Sequence record: PV357171.2
DNA: 64,000 nucleotides
From: a phage
Direction: 5' to 3' (one strand)
Position numbers and translations under genes: made by a program. The notes beneath the pieces are model-generated. The model was not told where the DNA came from. It searched no databases and was given only the letters and a program-made list of their open reading frames with translations. Numbering within the stretch: the first letter of the stretch is position 1; every line of letters starts with the position of its first letter. This document shows positions 21,415 through 61,840 of this stretch, in pieces.

Positions 21415-22188
21415 TTAGTCGTCCAGATCGCTTGCAGCTTCTGTGTCAATACCTTTCTGGGAGCCTGCATTGCTATTACCAGATTTGGCATCATCATCTT
21501 TATTCTCACGACCCTCCATGAAGGCTAGAATTGCTTCTTTCTGCTCTTCATAGGTAGGGACCGGATAGGTTTGTTCCAGAGAAGGAACTTTTTCGAACTT
21601 AATGATGTCGCCATCTTCGTCACACATAGCTTCACCGATCAGATCTACATCCGCAGCATATTGCTTAGATTCCGCACTGTTAGGATCTTGCAACTTAATC
21701 TGGAACTGCATAGCAGCAATCTGCTGTACATCATACTCAGTATCGAAACCTTTACCTTTTTTCTCGATAGAAATATCAATATCAAACGGAGTTGCCAGGC
21801 TCAACTGCTTCATGATAGACTGGATGCCTTTCAGAATAGTAGCCTTGACTTCCATTACTTTCAGTTTGTTATCAGAACGGTCAATAACAAAAGCGATATA
21901 GTTTTTCTTCGGTTTCAGCGGAACACGATTACCATCTTTATCCAGCTCTTTCTCGAAGAAGCCCATCTCATGAACCGGATCAGCTTTACCACGAACAAAG
22001 CTCTCTTTGTCACGGTTAAAACGGAGACATTCGAAAGGAGCTACGCTACCCTCTTTATTAGTCAGCCAATAGACATAACGTGGAAGAACACCAGAAACGA
22101 TACGAACACGAGTGATACCGTTGTTGAACTTCAGGAATTCGATTTTATCGTTAGAACCGCCAGTAGTTTCGCCCCAAGACTTAGCCAT
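21415..22188 (-). CDS. hypothetical protein; possible ssDNA-binding protein
   Basis: 257 aa with strongly acidic C-terminal tail (…ASDLDD) as seen in phage SSBs; inference only. Confidence 0.35.
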   Translation of the reverse strand: MAKSWGETTGGSNDKIEFLKFNNGITRVRIVSGVLPRYVYWLTNKEGSVAPFECLRFNRDKESFVRGKADPVHEMGFFEKELDKDGNRVPLKPKKNYIAFVIDRSDNKLKVMEVKATILKGIQSIMKQLSLATPFDIDISIEKKGKGFDTEYDVQQIAAMQFQIKLQDPNSAESKQYAADVDLIGEAMCDEDGDIIKFEKVPSLEQTYPVPTYEEQKEAILAFMEGRENKDDDAKSGNSNAGSQKGIDTEAASDLDD

Positions 22189-34848: not shown

Positions 34849-34877
34849 ATTATACAGAAAAATTTTCCTGAAAGCAA
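34849..34877 (-). promoter_or_regulatory. early promoter
   Basis: Reverse complement TTGCTT, 17 bp, TATAATAGATTCATAAATTTGAGAGAGGAG. Confidence 0.6.
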
Positions 34878-55582: not shown

Positions 55583-56221
55583 ATGACTACTCGTATTTCT
55601 AAAACTCGCGATCTGGCAACTATCAAATCTCTGGAAGCTAAAATCCGTAAAGCTACTGAACAACAGCTTCTGATCGCTGTTGGTGAAGGTAAGGATAAAA
55701 ATAAGGTTGTAGTTGGCGCTGCAATCGAAGTAGACGATCTGTCTGCTCGTATTAAGGCAGATTTCCAATCTCTCCTAGATATGATGTCCCAGCGTGATCG
55801 TATCAAAGCTGCTCTGATTAAGAGCAATGCGGAAACAGTAGTTGAGATTGGTTCTCGTAAAATGACTGTTGCAGAAGCAATTGAAGCTAAGCGTTCTATG
55901 GAGCTTAAAGCTCAGTTGCTGGCTAATATGCGTAAGCAGTTCCATGCCGCTACGGTTAAGTTTAATACGCAGAAAGCACAGTTTGATGCTAAATATGAGC
56001 GTTTGCAGGATAGCATGGCTACCCGCGATAAGAAAACTTCCGAAGATGAAGTTAAAATGCAGCTCAACCTGCTGGAACTCAAGAATACTCCATTCTTGAT
56101 TGATCCGCTGGAGCTGGAGAAGCTGATCAAGCAGCACGACGAAGAATATCAGGACTTTGCAACTAATGTTGACTTTGTTCTGTCTGAGTCTAATGCCTCT
56201 ACTTTCATTGAAGTAGAGTAA
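55583..56221 (+). CDS. hypothetical protein
   Basis: 212-aa ORF. Confidence 0.4.
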   Translation: MTTRISKTRDLATIKSLEAKIRKATEQQLLIAVGEGKDKNKVVVGAAIEVDDLSARIKADFQSLLDMMSQRDRIKAALIKSNAETVVEIGSRKMTVAEAIEAKRSMELKAQLLANMRKQFHAATVKFNTQKAQFDAKYERLQDSMATRDKKTSEDEVKMQLNLLELKNTPFLIDPLELEKLIKQHDEEYQDFATNVDFVLSESNASTFIEVE

Positions 56222-56604: not shown

Positions 56605-56633
56605 TTGCTAATCTACTAAATTATATGTATAAT
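56605..56633 (+). promoter_or_regulatory. early promoter
   Basis: TTGCTA, 17 bp, TATAATATATTT. Confidence 0.65.
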
Positions 56634-56663
56634 ATATTTTTAAATTGATGAAACGAGGCTATT

Positions 56664-57485
56664 ATGGGTAAATTACAAAAACAAATACTACCACATATAG
56701 ATTATATTCGAGAAATTATAGAGTATAATCCTTATACTGGTAAATTATTTTATAAGCCTAATAAATACAAGAATAAAACTTGGCACACCCTATATGCTGG
56801 GAGAGAAATATGTAGTAAGAACTCTGATGGGTATATCAGAGTTAGTTTGCTCTTAGATAATAAACCCACAATTATTTATGGACACCGAATAGCGTGGTTG
56901 CTCCATTATGGTGAAGAGCCTCCTTATATGATCGACCATATAAATACCATACCGTGGGATAACAGAATTGTTAATCTAAGAGAGACAAATTTTAAGTTAA
57001 ATAGGATTAATACTAATAAAACCGTAGGTGTAGAACTCCTCCCCGAGGGTTTTGTGTATAGCATTACATTAGGTGGAAAGTTTTTCGTATCTCCTGGCTT
57101 CACCACTTTCGAACAAGCTAAAGGGGAAAGAGAAAAACTAGTAAATGGTTTATGTAATGCAGAAATTGGGAAGCAGACCAATATTCTAATAGACGATGTT
57201 AGAGATCTACCTGAAATGTCCATTATTTGTCGTACAGTTATAGGTGCGCTGGAACTATCAGATATGTTTAGTTTTACTGGTTCCTACCTATTTATGGACT
57301 CAGATCTAGGAGACCCAGAAGTACAAGGAAAAGACTTATTAGATTATATACTCTTTTTAGGTCAAAGACCTTTGAAAGTAGTTCTAGTAACATCCAACCC
57401 TGTTGACGCAGAGTACATGAGAGGTACTCTTACGTCTTATGGTTATCGAGAAAATCCCAATAGGTTAGAATATGACCTATTTTAA
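56664..57485 (+). CDS. HNH homing endonuclease with C-terminal extension
   Basis: GYIRVSLLLDNKPTIIYGHRIAWLLHYGEEPPYMIDHINTIPWDNRIVNLRE. Confidence 0.65.
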   Translation: MGKLQKQILPHIDYIREIIEYNPYTGKLFYKPNKYKNKTWHTLYAGREICSKNSDGYIRVSLLLDNKPTIIYGHRIAWLLHYGEEPPYMIDHINTIPWDNRIVNLRETNFKLNRINTNKTVGVELLPEGFVYSITLGGKFFVSPGFTTFEQAKGEREKLVNGLCNAEIGKQTNILIDDVRDLPEMSIICRTVIGALELSDMFSFTGSYLFMDSDLGDPEVQGKDLLDYILFLGQRPLKVVLVTSNPVDAEYMRGTLTSYGYRENPNRLEYDLF

Positions 57486-57497
57486 GGAGTAAAAAGA

Positions 57498-57947
57498 ATG
57501 AAGGCAGCTTTGCTTTTAGTAGCTGCCCTTACCTTCAGCTTTAGTAGTCAGGCATCGCACGATGCAAAAGAAATAGATTGCATTGCTAAAAATATCTATT
57601 TTGAAAGTCGTGGTGAGGGCATAAATGGAATGATGGCGATTGCACATGTTACTAAAAACCGTGTAAACTCCGGTAAATTCCCAGATTCCTACTGTAAAGT
57701 AGTATATCAGTCTACCCAGTTCTCTTGGGTATCTAAGAGACCAAAAGTTGATAAAACGGATGAGGCTTGGCAAACCGCTAAGAATTTAGCTAGAGTGATA
57801 TACTACGTTGATTTACCACAAGATCCAACACATGGAGCACTATACTTCCATAGTGGTAAAGATAAACCTTACTGGACAAAGAAGTTTAAGAAAACAACGA
57901 AGATTCAAGGCCATACGTTCTACAAGCCTGCGGTCACTAAAACTTAA
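57498..57947 (+). CDS. secreted SleB/CwlJ-like cell wall hydrolase
   Basis: Signal peptide MKAALLLVAALTFSFSSQA, then NIYFESRGEG...MMAIAHVTKNR block typical of the SleB/CwlJ (Hydrolase_2) family. Confidence 0.5.
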   Translation: MKAALLLVAALTFSFSSQASHDAKEIDCIAKNIYFESRGEGINGMMAIAHVTKNRVNSGKFPDSYCKVVYQSTQFSWVSKRPKVDKTDEAWQTAKNLARVIYYVDLPQDPTHGALYFHSGKDKPYWTKKFKKTTKIQGHTFYKPAVTKT

Positions 57948-57955
57948 AAATTTAT

Positions 57956-57984
57956 TTGCTTAAATACTTAAACTTCTGTATAAT
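57956..57984 (+). promoter_or_regulatory. early promoter
   Basis: TTGCTT, 17 bp, TATAATACTTTCATAAATTAATGAGAGGAAG. Confidence 0.65.
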
Positions 57985-58015: not shown

Positions 58016-58186
58016 ATGAAGAACTTGATCGTCATTGGTGTTAACACTCGCGGTATTCGTACTACGAAAACTATTAAAACTTCTAACGTTGCTGAAATCA
58101 CTACGAACCCTAAAAAGTTTGATTTCGCCAAAGTCTCAGCAGTTATGACGGAGCAATCTTTTAACCAAGCGTTAGGACTGAAATAA
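58016..58186 (+). CDS. small hypothetical protein (56 aa), below ORF-track threshold
   Basis: ATG 7 nt after GAGAGGAAG and directly behind a family promoter; stop overlaps next ATG (TAATG). Confidence 0.45.
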   Translation: MKNLIVIGVNTRGIRTTKTIKTSNVAEITTNPKKFDFAKVSAVMTEQSFNQALGLK

Positions 58187-58637: not shown

Positions 58638-58666
58638 TTGCTAAATGCTTATAAATTCTGTATAAT
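58638..58666 (+). promoter_or_regulatory. early promoter driving ORF-free RNA region
   Basis: TTGCTA, 17 bp, TATAATATATTCATAAATT. Confidence 0.65.
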
Positions 58667-59463
58667 ATATTCATAAATTAGGGAACAGCGAGCCGATTAC
58701 GCTGAGTGCAGAATCCCAACCGGAGCGCATTGAATAGAGTCGGTGGGTTAGTTGTAAAACTAGTACACAGGGGGCGGCAATCCCGGTTAGTGGCTAGAAC
58801 GTGTAAAATGAGGCGTCTGAAACCTCTCCCCTAAACTCTTCTCTAATTTATAAATAGTGGGGTGTGGAAATCACTTATGTAGTAACACTGCCGTCCTAGT
58901 ATAATTGGTATTATCAAGCCGTAACTGGTGGAAGATGTAGGTTCGAATCCTACGGTCGGTAAGAACTGGATAACTGATGCTTTTAACGTAAAAGCTTCCG
59001 AGGTTAGTTGCGCACTGCCTAAACCACGCGGTAGTTGGTTCCAGACTAACCAACCAGTCTGCTGAATAGTTTTATTACGATTTAACTATGCCCAGGCTAA
59101 AGAAGAACTTTAGAAGGTATTCTAGGATAGTGAAGTTCTTTCTCCATATCGGAGTAGTTTTTCAAGCTATCCACAAAGTGGGAAATGCTGACATGAGAGA
59201 TGTCACTAATGGTGCACAATAGCACAGGTAATTCGCGATAACCCCTGTTGAGTAGCAGCAAAAGGCGGGAAGTCATGACCCCAAGCCTAACCGAGTCCTC
59301 AATATACCGCAGGACATAACCACTAAGTCCCCCTGACTTAAACTGGAAAATAATAGACGTTACTGTATTTTGTCTTGAAATACTTAATGAGTGAGACTTA
59401 TGACTCTCCCGGTATCGTCTGTATTTTTAAGAGTTTTTACGAGAGTTCTTAAAAATACTTAAA

Positions 59464-59572: not shown

Positions 59573-60520
59573 ATGTTTAATACTAAAAATATGAAAGAAC
59601 TGACTTCTGAGCAGAAAGTAATTCGTACTATTAAACGTTGGGGTATTGGTGCTGTAGTTGGTTTAGCAGGTTTAATCCTAGCTTTTAATTCATATACTGT
59701 TGTTCAAGACGGTACTGTTAAAACCCAGACTTTCCTGGGTAAAGTTGACCCTAGCCCAGTATTACCCGGCTTTCATATTGTAAATCCTTTTGCTTCTTTC
59801 GATACTTTTAGTACTAAAGATATTGCCCTAAAATTAGATAAACTTCAGGTTCCTAGCCAGGATAAGTTTAAATCCACTGTTGACCTGACTGTTATGTTGC
59901 AGTTTGATGGTTCTAAGGCACCAATTAACCGTATTAACGCAGGTACTCAGGATCAGGCGTTAGACAAGTATGTAACTGAAAAATTACTGTCTACTATTCG
60001 TGAGTTTGGTAAGTCTGTACCTAAAGCACAAGATTTGTTTGATGCTAAAATTCAGGCTCAATTGCAAACTGCAATTCAACAGGAAGTTGAAGAGTATGCA
60101 CGCCCATATGGTTACACAGTTAAGCAGGTATTCCTTCAGGATATTACTTTGCCACCGGTAATCATGGAACAGGTACAGAATACCAAAGTTCGTGAAGAGC
60201 AAGTTAATGCTGCGAAAGCTGAACTGGCCCGCGTTGAACAAGAAGCGCAGCAAAAGGTTAAACAAGCAGAAGCAGACCGTGAAGCTCGCAACAACCAAGC
60301 TATTGCTAATGAACGTGACGCAGATGCTAAACTGTACGCAGCTAAGAAAGAAGCTGAAGCTAACGCCGCATTGCAACGTACCATTACTCCTGAGATGATT
60401 CGCTGGAAGCAACTGGAAGTTGAAATGCTTCGTGCTGAAAAATACCAAGGTGGTGTACCGCAAACAGTAGTGGGAACTGGTTACGATGGCCAGATGATCA
60501 TGGATATGCGTAATAAGTAA
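59573..60520 (+). CDS. SPFH/band-7 (HflK/C-like) domain membrane protein
   Basis: N-terminal TM helix, then SPFH-type core and Ala/Glu/Gln-rich coiled coil; 315 aa. Confidence 0.5.
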   Translation: MFNTKNMKELTSEQKVIRTIKRWGIGAVVGLAGLILAFNSYTVVQDGTVKTQTFLGKVDPSPVLPGFHIVNPFASFDTFSTKDIALKLDKLQVPSQDKFKSTVDLTVMLQFDGSKAPINRINAGTQDQALDKYVTEKLLSTIREFGKSVPKAQDLFDAKIQAQLQTAIQQEVEEYARPYGYTVKQVFLQDITLPPVIMEQVQNTKVREEQVNAAKAELARVEQEAQQKVKQAEADREARNNQAIANERDADAKLYAAKKEAEANAALQRTITPEMIRWKQLEVEMLRAEKYQGGVPQTVVGTGYDGQMIMDMRNK

Positions 60521-60725: not shown

Positions 60726-60754
60726 TTGCTTGAATGCTAAATTCTCTGTATAAT
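60726..60754 (+). promoter_or_regulatory. early promoter
   Basis: TTGCTT, 17 bp, TATAATATATTTATAAATTTGAGAGAGG. Confidence 0.65.
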
Positions 60755-60784
60755 ATATTTATAAATTTGAGAGAGGAATCAAAT

Positions 60785-61840
60785 ATGATTAAGACTGGTC
60801 TAGTAATTGGTAAGTTCGCACCATTAACGCGTGGTCATATTAACCTAATAAACACAGCAGCAACTATGTGTGAACGAGTTATTGTTGTAGTTAGTCATGA
60901 TAATCGTTGGCTGGATAAGCAGAACACACGTGATCAGGAAGTATTACAGTTAAAGAATCGACTTCGTTGGTTAGAACAAACTTACGCGGATATTGAGCAC
61001 ATTTCGGTAGAGTACATTATTGAAGATGATATTCCTGAATATCCGAATGGTTGGCCGGAATATGCTAGAATCCTTAATGAAAATTACGGACATTTGCCTG
61101 AGATCACCGTTTTCTCTAGCGAACTAGACTATGATGCAGAATATAAGAAATATCTGCCGAAGTTTGGTCATTATATTGTAGATTCTGATCGGACTCGTGT
61201 TCCAATCTCAGCTACAATGATTCGTAATGATCTTATGAAGTATTGGGAGTTTCTTCCTAGCTTAGTTCGTAAAGATTACGTGCGTAAGGTTGTAATCATT
61301 GGGACTGAAAGCTCGGGAAAGACTACTTTAACAAAATACCTTGCGAAGCTATACAACACTTCGTGGGTAGAAGAATATGGCCGAACGTATTGTGAAGTTG
61401 ATCTAGTTGGTAACGAAAATCTACTTACCAGTGAAGATTACAGTAAAATTGCGTTCAGACACAAAGAGCTAGAGTTTGAAGCAGAACGTACTGCAAATAA
61501 GATCATGTTTGTGGATACAAATGCTTTTATTACTGAGTTCTACCACAGACTTTATGAACATAGTAAGAACCCTGTGGTTACAGCAATTGCAAAAGTAGAA
61601 CATTACGATTTAGTAATTGTTCTAGCGCCTACTGTCAAGTGGGTAGATGATGATTTACGTATTAACTCCGATCGTTCAATTACTTCTGAACTGTTCGAGC
61701 AGATGAAGAAAGAATTTCCAAATCAGTTCCCTGAAGGGCGTACTGTTTACATCGACTCTCCGGACTACAAAGTTCGTATGGACGAAGCAGTAAACGCAGT
61801 AGACTGGCTGATTCATCACTTTAACGTTGGAGAGTTTTAA
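60785..61840 (+). CDS. nadR: NadR-like bifunctional NMN adenylyltransferase / ribosylnicotinamide kinase
   Basis: N-terminal GKFAPLTRGH (nucleotidyltransferase H/T-x-G-H) and C-terminal P-loop IGTESSGKTTL; ATG at 60785 after GAGAGG. Confidence 0.6.
   Translation: MIKTGLVIGKFAPLTRGHINLINTAATMCERVIVVVSHDNRWLDKQNTRDQEVLQLKNRLRWLEQTYADIEHISVEYIIEDDIPEYPNGWPEYARILNENYGHLPEITVFSSELDYDAEYKKYLPKFGHYIVDSDRTRVPISATMIRNDLMKYWEFLPSLVRKDYVRKVVIIGTESSGKTTLTKYLAKLYNTSWVEEYGRTYCEVDLVGNENLLTSEDYSKIAFRHKELEFEAERTANKIMFVDTNAFITEFYHRLYEHSKNPVVTAIAKVEHYDLVIVLAPTVKWVDDDLRINSDRSITSELFEQMKKEFPNQFPEGRTVYIDSPDYKVRMDEAVNAVDWLIHHFNVGEF

Follow-up and report, generated by a model that had tools for sequence, protein, structure and literature searches.

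The SleB enzyme of Bacillus acts on cortex glycan from which the stem peptides have been removed, and it depends on muramic-delta-lactam, which is specific to the spore cortex and absent from the murein of E. coli and other enterobacteria. Among phage enzymes, the SAR domains of SAR endolysins are long, Gly/Ala-rich and uncleaved. In T5-like phages, a gene of the SleB family has received the names cell wall hydrolase, SleB or endolysin in hundreds of phage records, it is mentioned in papers of 2012 and 2024, and an arrangement of two 'endolysins' which is the same as the one discussed below has been described by Guzel et al. 2024. Furthermore, a Phapecoctavirus has been reported with a GH24 lysozyme together with a Hydrolase_2 lytic protein. 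Our literature search found no enzymatic, localisation or genetic study addressing the function of the T5 gene, T5.083, or of its orthologs; for the biochemistry of phage Hydrolase_2 proteins it returned annotations and bioinformatic surveys only, and for the bacterial and phage homologs compared in this work it returned no functional characterisation.

The stretch of DNA analysed, referred to as the window (64,000 nt, PV357171.2), comes from a T5-like phage, and the ORF found at 57498..57947 (+ strand, ATG to TAA, 149 aa) is the ortholog of T5.083 (YP_006911.1). Both proteins have 149 aa and the same signal peptide, both genes occupy the same slot, after T5.084 and before promoter P-D/E 33 and T5.082, and the two proteins are separated by ~ 5 amino-acid differences (5 nonsynonymous), with flanking promoters that are near-identical or identical. 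The gene was found across the Demerecviridae, with Sugarlandvirus and Pectobacterium phage My1 among the carriers. Examples of orthologs in Tequintavirus and Epseptimavirus are bas33_0077 of HildyBeyeler and ORF81 of AKFV33. An earlier note made on this DNA from its letters had called an early, exported hydrolase of this kind unusual. This did not stand, as the gene is T5.083 with its many annotated records and as similar genes with predicted export signals are present in rV5-like phages and in Pakpunavirus; the gene is ordinary and already known.

A Shine-Dalgarno motif, AAGGAG, was read from the sequence at 57484..57489 (+), 8 nt 5' of the hydrolase ATG, and it shares bases with the stop codon of the preceding gene. 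The ORF and the two motif blocks quoted in the earlier note are present exactly at 57498..57947 (+), with NIYFESRGEG at aa 32-41 and IAHVTKNR at aa 48-55, and the assignment to the SleB/CwlJ-like hydrolases was borne out by the HMM search. Indeed, the protein matches Pfam Hydrolase_2 (PF07486) with 89 bits for a cutoff of 27 (E=3.5e-25), and the entire model (1-100/100) is covered by aa 39-142. No Pfam domain other than Hydrolase_2 was matched in the 149 residues. The protein also matches PHROG 938 (E=5.7e-30), the label of which is 'endolysin'. The strength of these matches is far above chance, and the ORF is real and maintained by selection: compared with its orthologs, dN/dS values of 0.06-0.17 show a strong purifying selection on the signal region and the mature domain alike. 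An Rfam snoR83 match over the start of the gene (27 bits, gathering score 40, E=0.04) was dismissed as chance.

The mature Hydrolase_2 domain, of SleB fold, is predicted to span aa 20-149 (57555..57947, +, stop codon included). An AF2 model of the protein reached a mean pLDDT of 91.2, and when it was compared with the PDB using Foldseek the only significant matches were 4F55 and 4FET, both of them catalytic domains of Bacillus SleB, with TM-scores of 0.71-0.78 (target-normalised) and an rmsd of 2.4-2.9 Å. The same two entries were the only PDB matches by sequence (E ~ 1e-8), with 28-30% identity to the SleB catalytic domain over ~ 120 residues, and in the alignment YFESRGE of the phage protein faces YGESRGE of SleB. 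The Glu of the latter motif is the catalytic residue of SleB. It is aligned with E36 of the hydrolase (codon 57603-57605, +, within the mature domain), which is kept in 149 of the 150 family representatives of a MAFFT alignment, and E36, R55 and H139 are all invariant or nearly so in this set. Hence, as judged from the model and the alignment, the fold of the protein is that of SleB/CwlJ (Hydrolase_2), and its catalytic Glu is conserved.

The same alignment displays two cysteines of the mature domain, Cys28 (57579-57581, +) and Cys66 (57693-57695, +), which are present together in 148/150 representatives at positions where SleB has Leu and Ser. The two residues probably form a disulfide in the periplasm. 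The Cys pair is specific to a clade with export signals, most of the 148 representatives which have both cysteines carrying such signals, and this lends some indirect support to export. It is kept in the closest family representatives and in most of the bacterial homologs recovered, while the rV5 and JG004 proteins show different, even-numbered, cysteine patterns.

At its N-terminus, the protein begins with MKAALLLVAALTFSFSSQA followed by SHD, and its n-, h- and c-regions are arranged as in substrates of signal peptidase I. The predicted signal peptide covers aa 1-19 (57498..57554, +), with MK as n-region, AALLLVAALTF as h-region and SFSSQA as c-region, and cleavage is expected between SQA and S, with Ser at -3 and Ala at -1. 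This segment contains 15 uncharged residues (aa 3-17) with a maximum Kyte-Doolittle 9-mer value of 2.96, and all the features of the Sec/SPase I rule set were found in it, namely a basic n-region, a hydrophobic h-region within the 7-15 residues allowed, a polar c-region and small residues at -3 and -1. The call was made from such residue rules together with the comparison among homologs. In the orthologs and in distant homologs the shape of the signal peptide is kept and its sequence is divergent, as illustrated by MLKVLLLLATTISSLPAYA before T in P0019, MKAAILMISILTSFHAQA before K in Sugarland and VKIKIFAIILSAFLSLPVVA before A in the rV5-type protein. A hydrophobic N-terminus is found in 137/146 family representatives and in 55 of the 59 bacterial homologs that were recovered. 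We infer that this N-terminus is a credible cleavable Sec signal peptide, so that the Sec-type signal proposed in the earlier note agrees with the layout, with the SQA-S site and with a shape conserved despite sequence turnover.

Other types of N-terminus were considered. A lipoprotein was ruled out, as the signal region has no Cys that could form a lipobox. A SAR endolysin was rejected on a rule-based judgement, given a short, Leu/Ala/Val-rich h-region with only 15 uncharged residues and the SQA-S site.

It could be argued that no active enzyme is exported at all, either because the hydrophobic N-terminus does not function as a signal peptide or because the domain merely binds peptidoglycan, with a different role or without any. 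Muramic-delta-lactam, the substrate feature of SleB-type enzymes, is indeed lacking in the host. Moreover, Hydrolase_2 proteins of Ladybird added from outside did not limit the growth of E. coli (PMC7807722), a result which the outer membrane explains. We consider this reading very improbable, given that the catalytic Glu and the other core residues are invariant, that purifying selection acts strongly on both parts of the protein, that the shape of the signal peptide survives a complete turnover of its sequence, that the Cys pair is confined to the clade with export signals and that the gene is highly transcribed in Bas33 (see below).

The hydrolase gene comes second in an operon of two genes. 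The operon promoter (56605..56638, +) is a sigma-70 promoter of the T5 early class composed of TTGCTA, a 17-nt spacer and TATAAT (56605-56633), then an ATATT discriminator, and it scored 10/12 in a promoter scan. For the early promoters known in T5, ATATT is the stated consensus of the discriminator (PMC7472727), and save a few spacer bases the operon promoter is the one annotated upstream of T5.084 (NC_005859). The pattern TTGCTW-N17-TATAAT occurs at 16 exact sites, this promoter among them, for 0.05 expected by chance, and all 16 fall in the two blocks of early genes and point in the direction of these genes. The first gene of the operon (56664..57485, +) joins in one reading frame an HNH_3 endonuclease module (aa ~ 1-170) and a cREC_REC part (aa ~ 171-273), as seen with Pfam (HNH_3, cREC_REC) and PHROG (99, 1479). 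Its cREC_REC part is the homolog of T5.084, a 105-aa protein without the HNH part, and the HNH insertion begins directly after the ATG common with T5.084; this in-frame insertion is found here and in HildyBeyeler but not in T5. The linkage of T5.084/cREC_REC to the hydrolase is limited to the Markadamsvirinae.

No terminator was predicted between the HNH_3/cREC_REC gene and the hydrolase. Directly 3' of the hydrolase stop, a further member of the 16-site family (57956..57984, +; TTGCTT-17-TATAAT) is 100% identical to the T5 feature 'promoter P-D/E 33'. It drives the DUF7616 / T5.082 homolog at 58016 and marks the 3' boundary of the unique region of the hydrolase operon. The neighbours of the hydrolase are HNH/cREC_REC, DUF7616, a YqeY-like gene and a tRNA-Arg. 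The locus, with the nrd/frd/thy/rnh genes on one side and the tRNA cluster on the other, belongs to an early block of the DNA that is transferred in the second step. At the level of the sequence, the early promoter context that had been claimed for this ORF therefore holds, for the class of the promoter as for the gene block.

RNA-seq data, deposited as PRJEB101990, are available for the close relative Bas33. The ortholog bas33_0077 reached 1,630/1,410 TPM at 20 min, the sole time point and one at which late genes are already on, so that early and late expression are not told apart by it, and its operon partner bas33_0076 was similar (1,826/1,267 TPM). At this time bas33_0077 is above the Bas33 holin and endolysin (845-1,072 and 686-898 TPM respectively), and when second-step DNA transfer is blocked it falls to ~ 5 TPM. 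The ortholog is thus transcribed in this relative and is not pre-early.

This early setting is what could point to a non-lytic role in the envelope, such as local remodelling or thinning of the murein, accommodation of envelope changes, an altered periplasm that hinders the DNA or the injection machinery of superinfecting phages, or release of muropeptide signals; superinfection and remodelling of the wall were the roles suggested in the earlier note. Besides the class of the promoter, the gene lies among nucleotide-metabolism and tRNA genes and not among lysis genes, its placement is similar in rV5-like phages and in Pakpunavirus, and a holin-independent export, as predicted, would allow the enzyme to act long before lysis. 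However, the holin and the endolysin of T5 are also located in an 'early' region of the map, so that position says little on timing, and nothing that was found favours a function in superinfection or in wall remodelling. Nor was any conserved partner or immunity gene found across lineages which could suggest a pathway: the neighbours differ between Sugarland (metallopeptidase), rV5-type phages (MoxR, rIIA) and JG004 (ligase, phosphohydrolase). Furthermore, superinfection exclusion in T5-like phages is already attributed to a lipoprotein, which the CRISPRi-ART table lists as lpp (T5.158). An early role of this kind is in our opinion distinctly unlikely.

Concerning lysis, HildyBeyeler, one of the closest relatives with an annotation (95% nt identity), carries, as T5 itself does, a holin, an M15 endolysin and i/o-spanins ~ 19-22 kb away from the hydrolase gene, at a position which corresponds to a region outside the 64-kb window. 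The contrast drawn in the earlier note, of an exported hydrolase taking the place of a holin and its cytoplasmic endolysin, did not withstand this comparison. Given that the relatives possess this separate set, the hydrolase is an addition and not a replacement, and it is not the main endolysin of a T5-like phage. A canonical holin-dependent endolysin was rejected on the grounds that no holin or spanin gene adjoins the ORF, that its N-terminus resembles an export signal and that the cassette of the relatives is elsewhere.

Fitness data exist for T5 itself. T5.083 was called 'Not Fit' in the T5 CRISPRi-ART screen, as would suit an accessory gene, but this call is weak since the canonical endolysin gene lys, both spanins and known essential genes (D13, N4) were 'Not Fit' as well. 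In the same screen the holin was 'Fit', and such a pattern would arise if lys can be replaced by another murein hydrolase. The protein could then be a true second endolysin, Sec-exported without need of the holin like Lys44 of oenophage fOg44 or, in its functioning, like SAR endolysins, restrained in the periplasm, activated once the membrane potential has been collapsed by the holin and redundant with the M15 endolysin. A predicted signal peptide together with an intact catalytic Glu would suit such an enzyme, PHROG 938 and many records name it 'endolysin', and secreted or SAR lysins are common in Gram-negative phages, with 27.9% predicted (PMC8223927). On the other hand, the gene is linked to neither holin nor spanins in any lineage examined, and its h-region and SPase I site are unlike SAR domains. 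The 'Not Fit' call for lys is explained more simply by an insensitive screen, spanins and essential replication and virion genes giving the same call, and the knockdown of T5.083 was likewise without effect. We therefore hold a second endolysin to be unlikely.

The reading that we favour, with a probability of about 0.55, is that of an accessory periplasmic murein hydrolase of the early class, exported by Sec, which aids lysis. According to this proposal, the host sigma-70 RNA polymerase would start at the T5 early-class promoter and transcribe first the T5.084-like gene and then the hydrolase gene, and the Sec pathway would export the product with removal of the 19-residue signal peptide. The mature domain of ~ 14.5 kDa would fold in the periplasm, probably stabilised by the Cys28-Cys66 disulfide, and would cut the glycan strands of peptidoglycan, most likely as a lytic transglycosylase by analogy with SleB. 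As it would reach the murein without a holin, its cutting of glycan could complement the peptide-cutting endolysin, an M15 L-Ala-D-Glu peptidase, and the most likely contribution would be a faster or more complete breakdown of the sacculus at lysis. Activity on ordinary Gram-negative murein is here extrapolated from SleB. An active hydrolase exported early should, however, harm the cell before lysis at ~ 40 min, which implies either that its activity is low or restrained or that the proposed role as an aid to lysis is wrong.

By analogy with SleB and its preference for stripped glycan, one may imagine that the hydrolase is present in the periplasm early, is nearly inert on intact cross-linked murein and becomes active once the holin-released M15 peptidase strips the peptides. 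If true, this would explain both the harmless early secretion and the fact that an exported Hydrolase_2 protein is kept apart from the lysis cassette in several unrelated phage groups. As a general rule it meets a difficulty in the reported Phapecoctavirus, in which Hydrolase_2 is paired with a GH24 lysozyme and not with a peptidase, and we give such a relay only a slim chance.

As a finding in its own right, the locus adds little, since this accessory gene of a model phage is conserved and has long been annotated. A SleB-fold hydrolase beside a complete lysis system is nevertheless seen in unrelated virulent Gram-negative phages (T5-like, rV5-like, Pakpuna and probably Phapecocta), and in the three groups examined, T5-like, rV5-like and Pakpuna, it is predicted to be Sec-exported and its gene, surrounded by early genes, is separate from the lysis cassette. 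The role of this extra exported hydrolase is a modest residual question in phage biology, for which T5 genetics suits deletion and double-deletion tests. To our knowledge, E. coli probably has no enzyme of the Hydrolase_2 family, and if the glycan strands of Gram-negative bacteria are cut by this one, its compact catalytic module (~ 130 aa) may be of interest for engineered lysins.

Compared with the described systems, the hydrolase shares with SleB the fold and the Y-x-E-S-R-G-E catalytic motif, and differs from it by the lack of an N-terminal PG_binding_1 domain and by its cysteines in place of Leu/Ser. A true SleB ortholog was rejected, with 50.8 bits for the TIGR02869 equivalog as against a cutoff of 236.5, no PG-binding domain and a T5-like enterobacterial phage as source. 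Moreover, because the host murein has no muramic-delta-lactam, substrate recognition must differ from that of SleB.

Likeness is also found in Hydrolase_2 proteins of other phages and of non-sporulating Gram-negative bacteria, for the most part Alphaproteobacteria, with 33-44% identity in the catalytic domain. The bacterial, rV5-like and JG004 proteins examined all carry a hydrophobic N-terminal export signal, but most of the bacterial proteins are longer, with 150-400 aa and linker regions, and the JG004 protein has an uncleaved-looking anchor instead of a classic signal peptide. In the rV5-like phages and in Pakpunavirus JG004 (PJG4_029) the gene is likewise not part of the lysis cassette but surrounded by early genes or genes of DNA metabolism, where it adjoins rIIA and MoxR in the former, and DNA ligase and dCMP deaminase in the latter.

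Finally, Lys44 of fOg44 and the SAR endolysins (P1 Lyz, phage 21 R) resemble the hydrolase, as far as its predicted signal allows, in being murein hydrolases that use the Sec system of the host, and not holes made by a holin, to reach the wall. These enzymes belong to a different catalytic family and each is the sole endolysin of its phage, encoded in the lysis cassette, whereas the hydrolase coexists with a cytoplasmic endolysin, is unlinked to the holin and has an N-terminus that looks cleavable and not SAR-like.

The open reading frame at 57498-57947 (plus strand) starts with ATG, comprises 149 codons and is preceded by a ribosome-binding site, AAGGAG, 8 nt 5' of the start codon. Its product contains the motif strings quoted in the earlier note, which had described a SleB-type hydrolase, and the whole PF07486 (Hydrolase_2) model is matched with 89 bits (gathering score 27; E=3.5e-25), confirming that description; the second profile match is PHROG 938, labelled 'endolysin'. 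The only solved structures matched by the sequence are the Bacillus SleB catalytic domains 4F55 and 4FET (E about 1e-8), where YFESRGE of the hydrolase aligns with YGESRGE of SleB. An AlphaFold2 model obtained with 29 homologs as input was confident (mean pLDDT 91.2, pTM 0.83), and among PDB entries only the SleB domains were significant, with TM 0.71-0.78 (target-normalised) and rmsd 2.4-2.9 Å, the next matches having E>1. Given the reading frame, the Pfam and PHROG matches and the likeness to SleB in sequence and structure, the hydrolase is a real gene and not a chance reading frame. It is not a SleB ortholog, as it scores 50.8 bits against an equivalog cutoff of 236.5 bits and is devoid of the peptidoglycan-binding domain. 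With 14,430 clusters at E<=1e-3, its family is very large. The closest cellular relatives of the hydrolase share 33-44% identity with it; they are encoded on the chromosomes of non-sporulating bacteria, mainly Alphaproteobacteria, and as a rule exceed it in length.

The window comes from a T5-like phage (Demerecviridae, Tequintavirus), and the 4.6 kb round the hydrolase, matched by 460 phage records, show 95% identity to Escherichia phages vB_EcoS_HZ_ZJUN2 and HildyBeyeler (Bas33); homologs were found by tblastn in 1,367 phage records. Read from the HildyBeyeler annotation, the window holds a block of late tail genes, an early replication block on the minus strand and an early nucleotide-metabolism and tRNA block on the plus strand, the hydrolase being located in the last of these between rnh/thy/frd/nrd and the tRNA cluster. 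The T5 (NC_005859) ortholog is T5.083, which differs from the window protein at ~5 amino-acid positions (5 nonsynonymous differences) and is flanked 5' by T5.084 and an annotated promoter and 3' by the annotated promoter 'P-D/E 33'. The allele in the window is of T5 type (...FSFSSQASHDAKE...) and that of HildyBeyeler, at 21499-21948 of its comparison locus L001, is of Epseptimavirus type (...FSFNSHATYDSKQ...), with a dS of 0.44 against the window and flanks ~95% identical. This mosaicism suggests recombinational exchange of the gene between the Tequintavirus and Epseptimavirus lineages.

The N-terminus, MK-AALLLVAALTF-SFSSQA followed by SHD after the predicted signal-peptidase cleavage site, displays a basic n-region, then a strongly hydrophobic core of 11 residues inside 15 uncharged ones (Kyte-Doolittle 9-mer maximum 2.96), and lastly a polar c-region in which Ser occupies position -3 and Ala position -1. 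A lipoprotein was ruled out by the lack of Cys in this segment, and a SAR domain by its being too short and too Leu-rich. Comparison of homologs provides evidence for a signal peptide that is stronger than this rule-based reading: the mature domain is 84-86% identical between homologs, yet the signal region is rewritten, for instance as MLKVLLLLATTISSLPAYA before T (P0019), MKAAILMISILTSFHAQA before K (Sugarland), MRTISKLLIASAIALATFATPPVVA before K, MKKFLALLLFSASIEA before S and many more. Furthermore, a hydrophobic segment precedes the domain in 137 of the 146 representatives that could be scored from the closest clusters at 50% identity, and in 55 of the 59 bacterial homologs recovered. Cys28 and Cys66 are both present in 148 of 150 representatives, whereas Bacillus SleB has Leu and Ser in these columns; such a pair, confined to the clade with export signals, would be expected of a periplasmic disulfide. 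The signal peptide claimed in the earlier note is hence supported by the n/h/c layout, the SQA/S site and the homologs, and we infer, with good support, that the hydrolase is exported.

Conservation in the family sample extends to E36 (149/150), R55 (150/150) and H139 (149/150), as well as to Y34 and G44. The whole gene has a dN/dS of 0.06-0.17 against T5, HildyBeyeler and TrudiRoth, and its signal region stays under 0.27. That the gene encodes an exported Hydrolase_2 enzyme is highly probable, and a non-exported or non-catalytic protein is very improbable. Bacillus SleB is a lytic transglycosylase that requires muramic-delta-lactam. E. coli murein is not known to contain this lactam, so the bond cleaved by the hydrolase and its substrate preference are extrapolations. 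The sole experimental data found on non-spore Hydrolase_2 proteins concern ladybird cwh1 proteins, which, applied from outside, limited vegetative growth of B. subtilis and not that of E. coli (PMC7807722).

A sigma-70 promoter, TTGCTA-17-TATAAT followed by ATATT, was found by promoter scan at 56605-56633 on the plus strand (score 10/12), and the T5 promoter annotated ahead of T5.084 differs from it in only a few spacer bases. The promoter in the window precedes a reading frame of 273 codons (56664-57485, plus strand) whose stop codon overlaps the Shine-Dalgarno sequence of the hydrolase, and no terminator-like site is predicted at their junction; the two therefore form an operon. The weak terminator-like sites inside the upstream frame (56820-56843 and 57037-57049) are within chance expectation in number. 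The operon promoter belongs to a set of strong, almost identical promoters: exact TTGCTW-N17-TATAAT sites number 16 in the window against 0.05 expected, spanning 31167 to 62595 (plus-strand members include 45269, 48869, 53055, 55279, 58638 and 60726); all lie inside the two early blocks, co-oriented with the genes and with AT-rich upstream regions, and none in the late tail-gene block. The minus-strand site at 34849-34877 exactly matches what we take to be the core of T5 P_N25. The ATATT discriminator is present in all known T5 early promoters (Klimuk et al. 2020, PMC7472727). Right after the hydrolase stop, a further promoter (57956-57984) is 100% identical to T5 'P-D/E 33'. The proposed early promoter context is thus borne out at the sequence level by the promoter with its discriminator, its T5.084 counterpart and the 16-site family.

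In Bas33 RNA-seq, sampled once at 20 min post-infection with two untreated values per gene, TPM are 1,630 / 1,410 for the hydrolase (bas33_0077), 1,826 / 1,267 for its operon partner (bas33_0076), 1,072 / 845 for the holin (bas33_0142) and 898 / 686 for the endolysin (bas33_0143). With second-step DNA transfer blocked, the hydrolase gene falls to about 5 TPM. The gene is thus transcribed from DNA of the second transfer step and does not belong to the pre-early genes; its early-class assignment rests on promoter type and position. An early non-lytic role in the envelope, as the earlier note suggested, would suit that class, and we regard it as unlikely; the T5 holin and endolysin likewise map in the 'early' region, so early synthesis of a wall hydrolase is not exceptional for this phage by map position alone.

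Several neighbouring features were recorded. The upstream gene is an in-frame fusion of an HNH_3 module (aa ~1-170) with a cREC_REC domain (aa ~171-273), the homing-endonuclease-like insert of ~500 bp lying immediately 3' of the ATG of the T5.084 homolog, whose promoter, RBS and ATG are reused; the cREC_REC part lacks a separate start codon here. The insertion is absent from T5, T5_ev219 and TrudiRoth (318 bp vs 822 bp in the window). HildyBeyeler annotates it as 'intein' (aa 3-171), a doubtful label, since Met-Gly would make up the entire N-extein and the insert opens with Lys rather than Cys/Ser and lacks a terminal His-Asn. The T5.085 homolog (55583-56221, plus strand) is called 'tail fiber protein' by PHROG 1491 and several GenBank records; it has no Pfam domain and lies in the early block, where an early-type promoter of its own (55279) precedes it, and the label is probably a propagated annotation artefact. 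At ~58667-59463 (plus strand), behind the promoter at 58638-58666 and between the T5.081 homolog and tRNA-Arg, lies a homolog of T5 'rnaX' (T5s08), in T5 annotation a stable RNA of 719 nt with no function given. An insertion of ~147 nt close to the 5' end and, further on, a deletion of ~87 nt set it apart from its T5 counterpart; it holds a tRNA-like element at 58890-58961 (Rfam RF00005, 35.5 bits vs gathering score 29; no ARAGORN call), and the small ORFs recorded in this stretch are unlikely to be genes. Further on are an SPFH/Band_7 membrane protein gene (59573-60520, plus strand), homologous to T5.080 and annotated 'lipoprotein', and a NadR-like bifunctional nicotinamide-nucleotide adenylyltransferase / AAA_28 kinase gene (60734-61840, plus strand; PHROG 3462, E=1e-151), replaced at the matching HildyBeyeler position by a 519-bp hypothetical gene.

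The earlier note had set an exported hydrolase in place of an endolysin with a holin, which is wrong: in HildyBeyeler the genes for i-spanin, o-spanin, holin and endolysin (bas33_0138/0139/0142/0143) follow the hydrolase at a distance of ~19 kb, beyond the window end, and T5 has lys (T5.040), a holin (T5.041) and Rz-like spanins (T5.044/045). The best-supported reading, with a probability of roughly 0.55, is an accessory enzyme that Sec export would carry to the periplasm, giving access without the holin, and that would cut glycan strands there as a complement to the peptide-cleaving M15 endolysin. Early export without premature lysis could possibly be explained by low intrinsic activity on intact murein or by substrate-state gating. 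The genome-wide T5 CRISPRi-ART screen gave 'Not Fit' for T5.083 and T5.084 (5 guides, p=0.73; PMC11879866, supplementary file 16), which weakly suggests that T5.083 is accessory. The holin scored 'Fit', but a 'Not Fit' call also went to lys, to the two spanins and to several genes known to be essential (PMC11879866), so the screen is insensitive for T5. The result for lys and the spanins most likely reflects a sensitivity limit of knockdown for catalytic proteins, and a 'Fit' holin with a 'Not Fit' lys would also be the outcome of redundancy between T5.040 and T5.083. A redundant secreted endolysin, restrained until membrane depolarisation, is considered unlikely, though slightly more probable than the early envelope role.

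The gene and its odd placement are already on record, as both are described for T5-like Salmonella phages, with a Peptidase_M15C endolysin beside the holin and a SleB-domain 'endolysin' far away (Guzel et al. 2024), and for AKFV33, whose early-region genes include 'cell wall hydrolase SleB (ORF81)' (Niu et al. 2012). No functional study of T5.083 or its orthologs was found in the literature, and the name 'T5.083' occurs in no paper searched. To call the hydrolase unusual was therefore overstated: it is T5.083, a conserved accessory gene, already known and long annotated. Its remaining interest lies in the recurrent class of exported phage Hydrolase_2 proteins to which it belongs. Hydrolase_2 is among the dominant catalytic domains in lysins of phages infecting Gram-negative bacteria (survey, PMC8223927), and the exported gene pattern is general, with no conserved partner gene across the lineages compared (including rV5-like phages, Pakpunavirus JG004 and Sugarlandvirus). 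Its neighbours in rV5-like phages are a MoxR ATPase cluster on one side and rIIA on the other, and the product starts with a classic signal peptide. In JG004 the gene is flanked by those for DNA ligase/dCMP deaminase and for phosphohydrolase, and the N-terminus of its product forms a hydrophobic anchor. In Sugarlandvirus it is preceded by a metallopeptidase gene, and one Phapecoctavirus phage is reported to have a GH24 lysozyme together with a Hydrolase_2 'lytic protein'.
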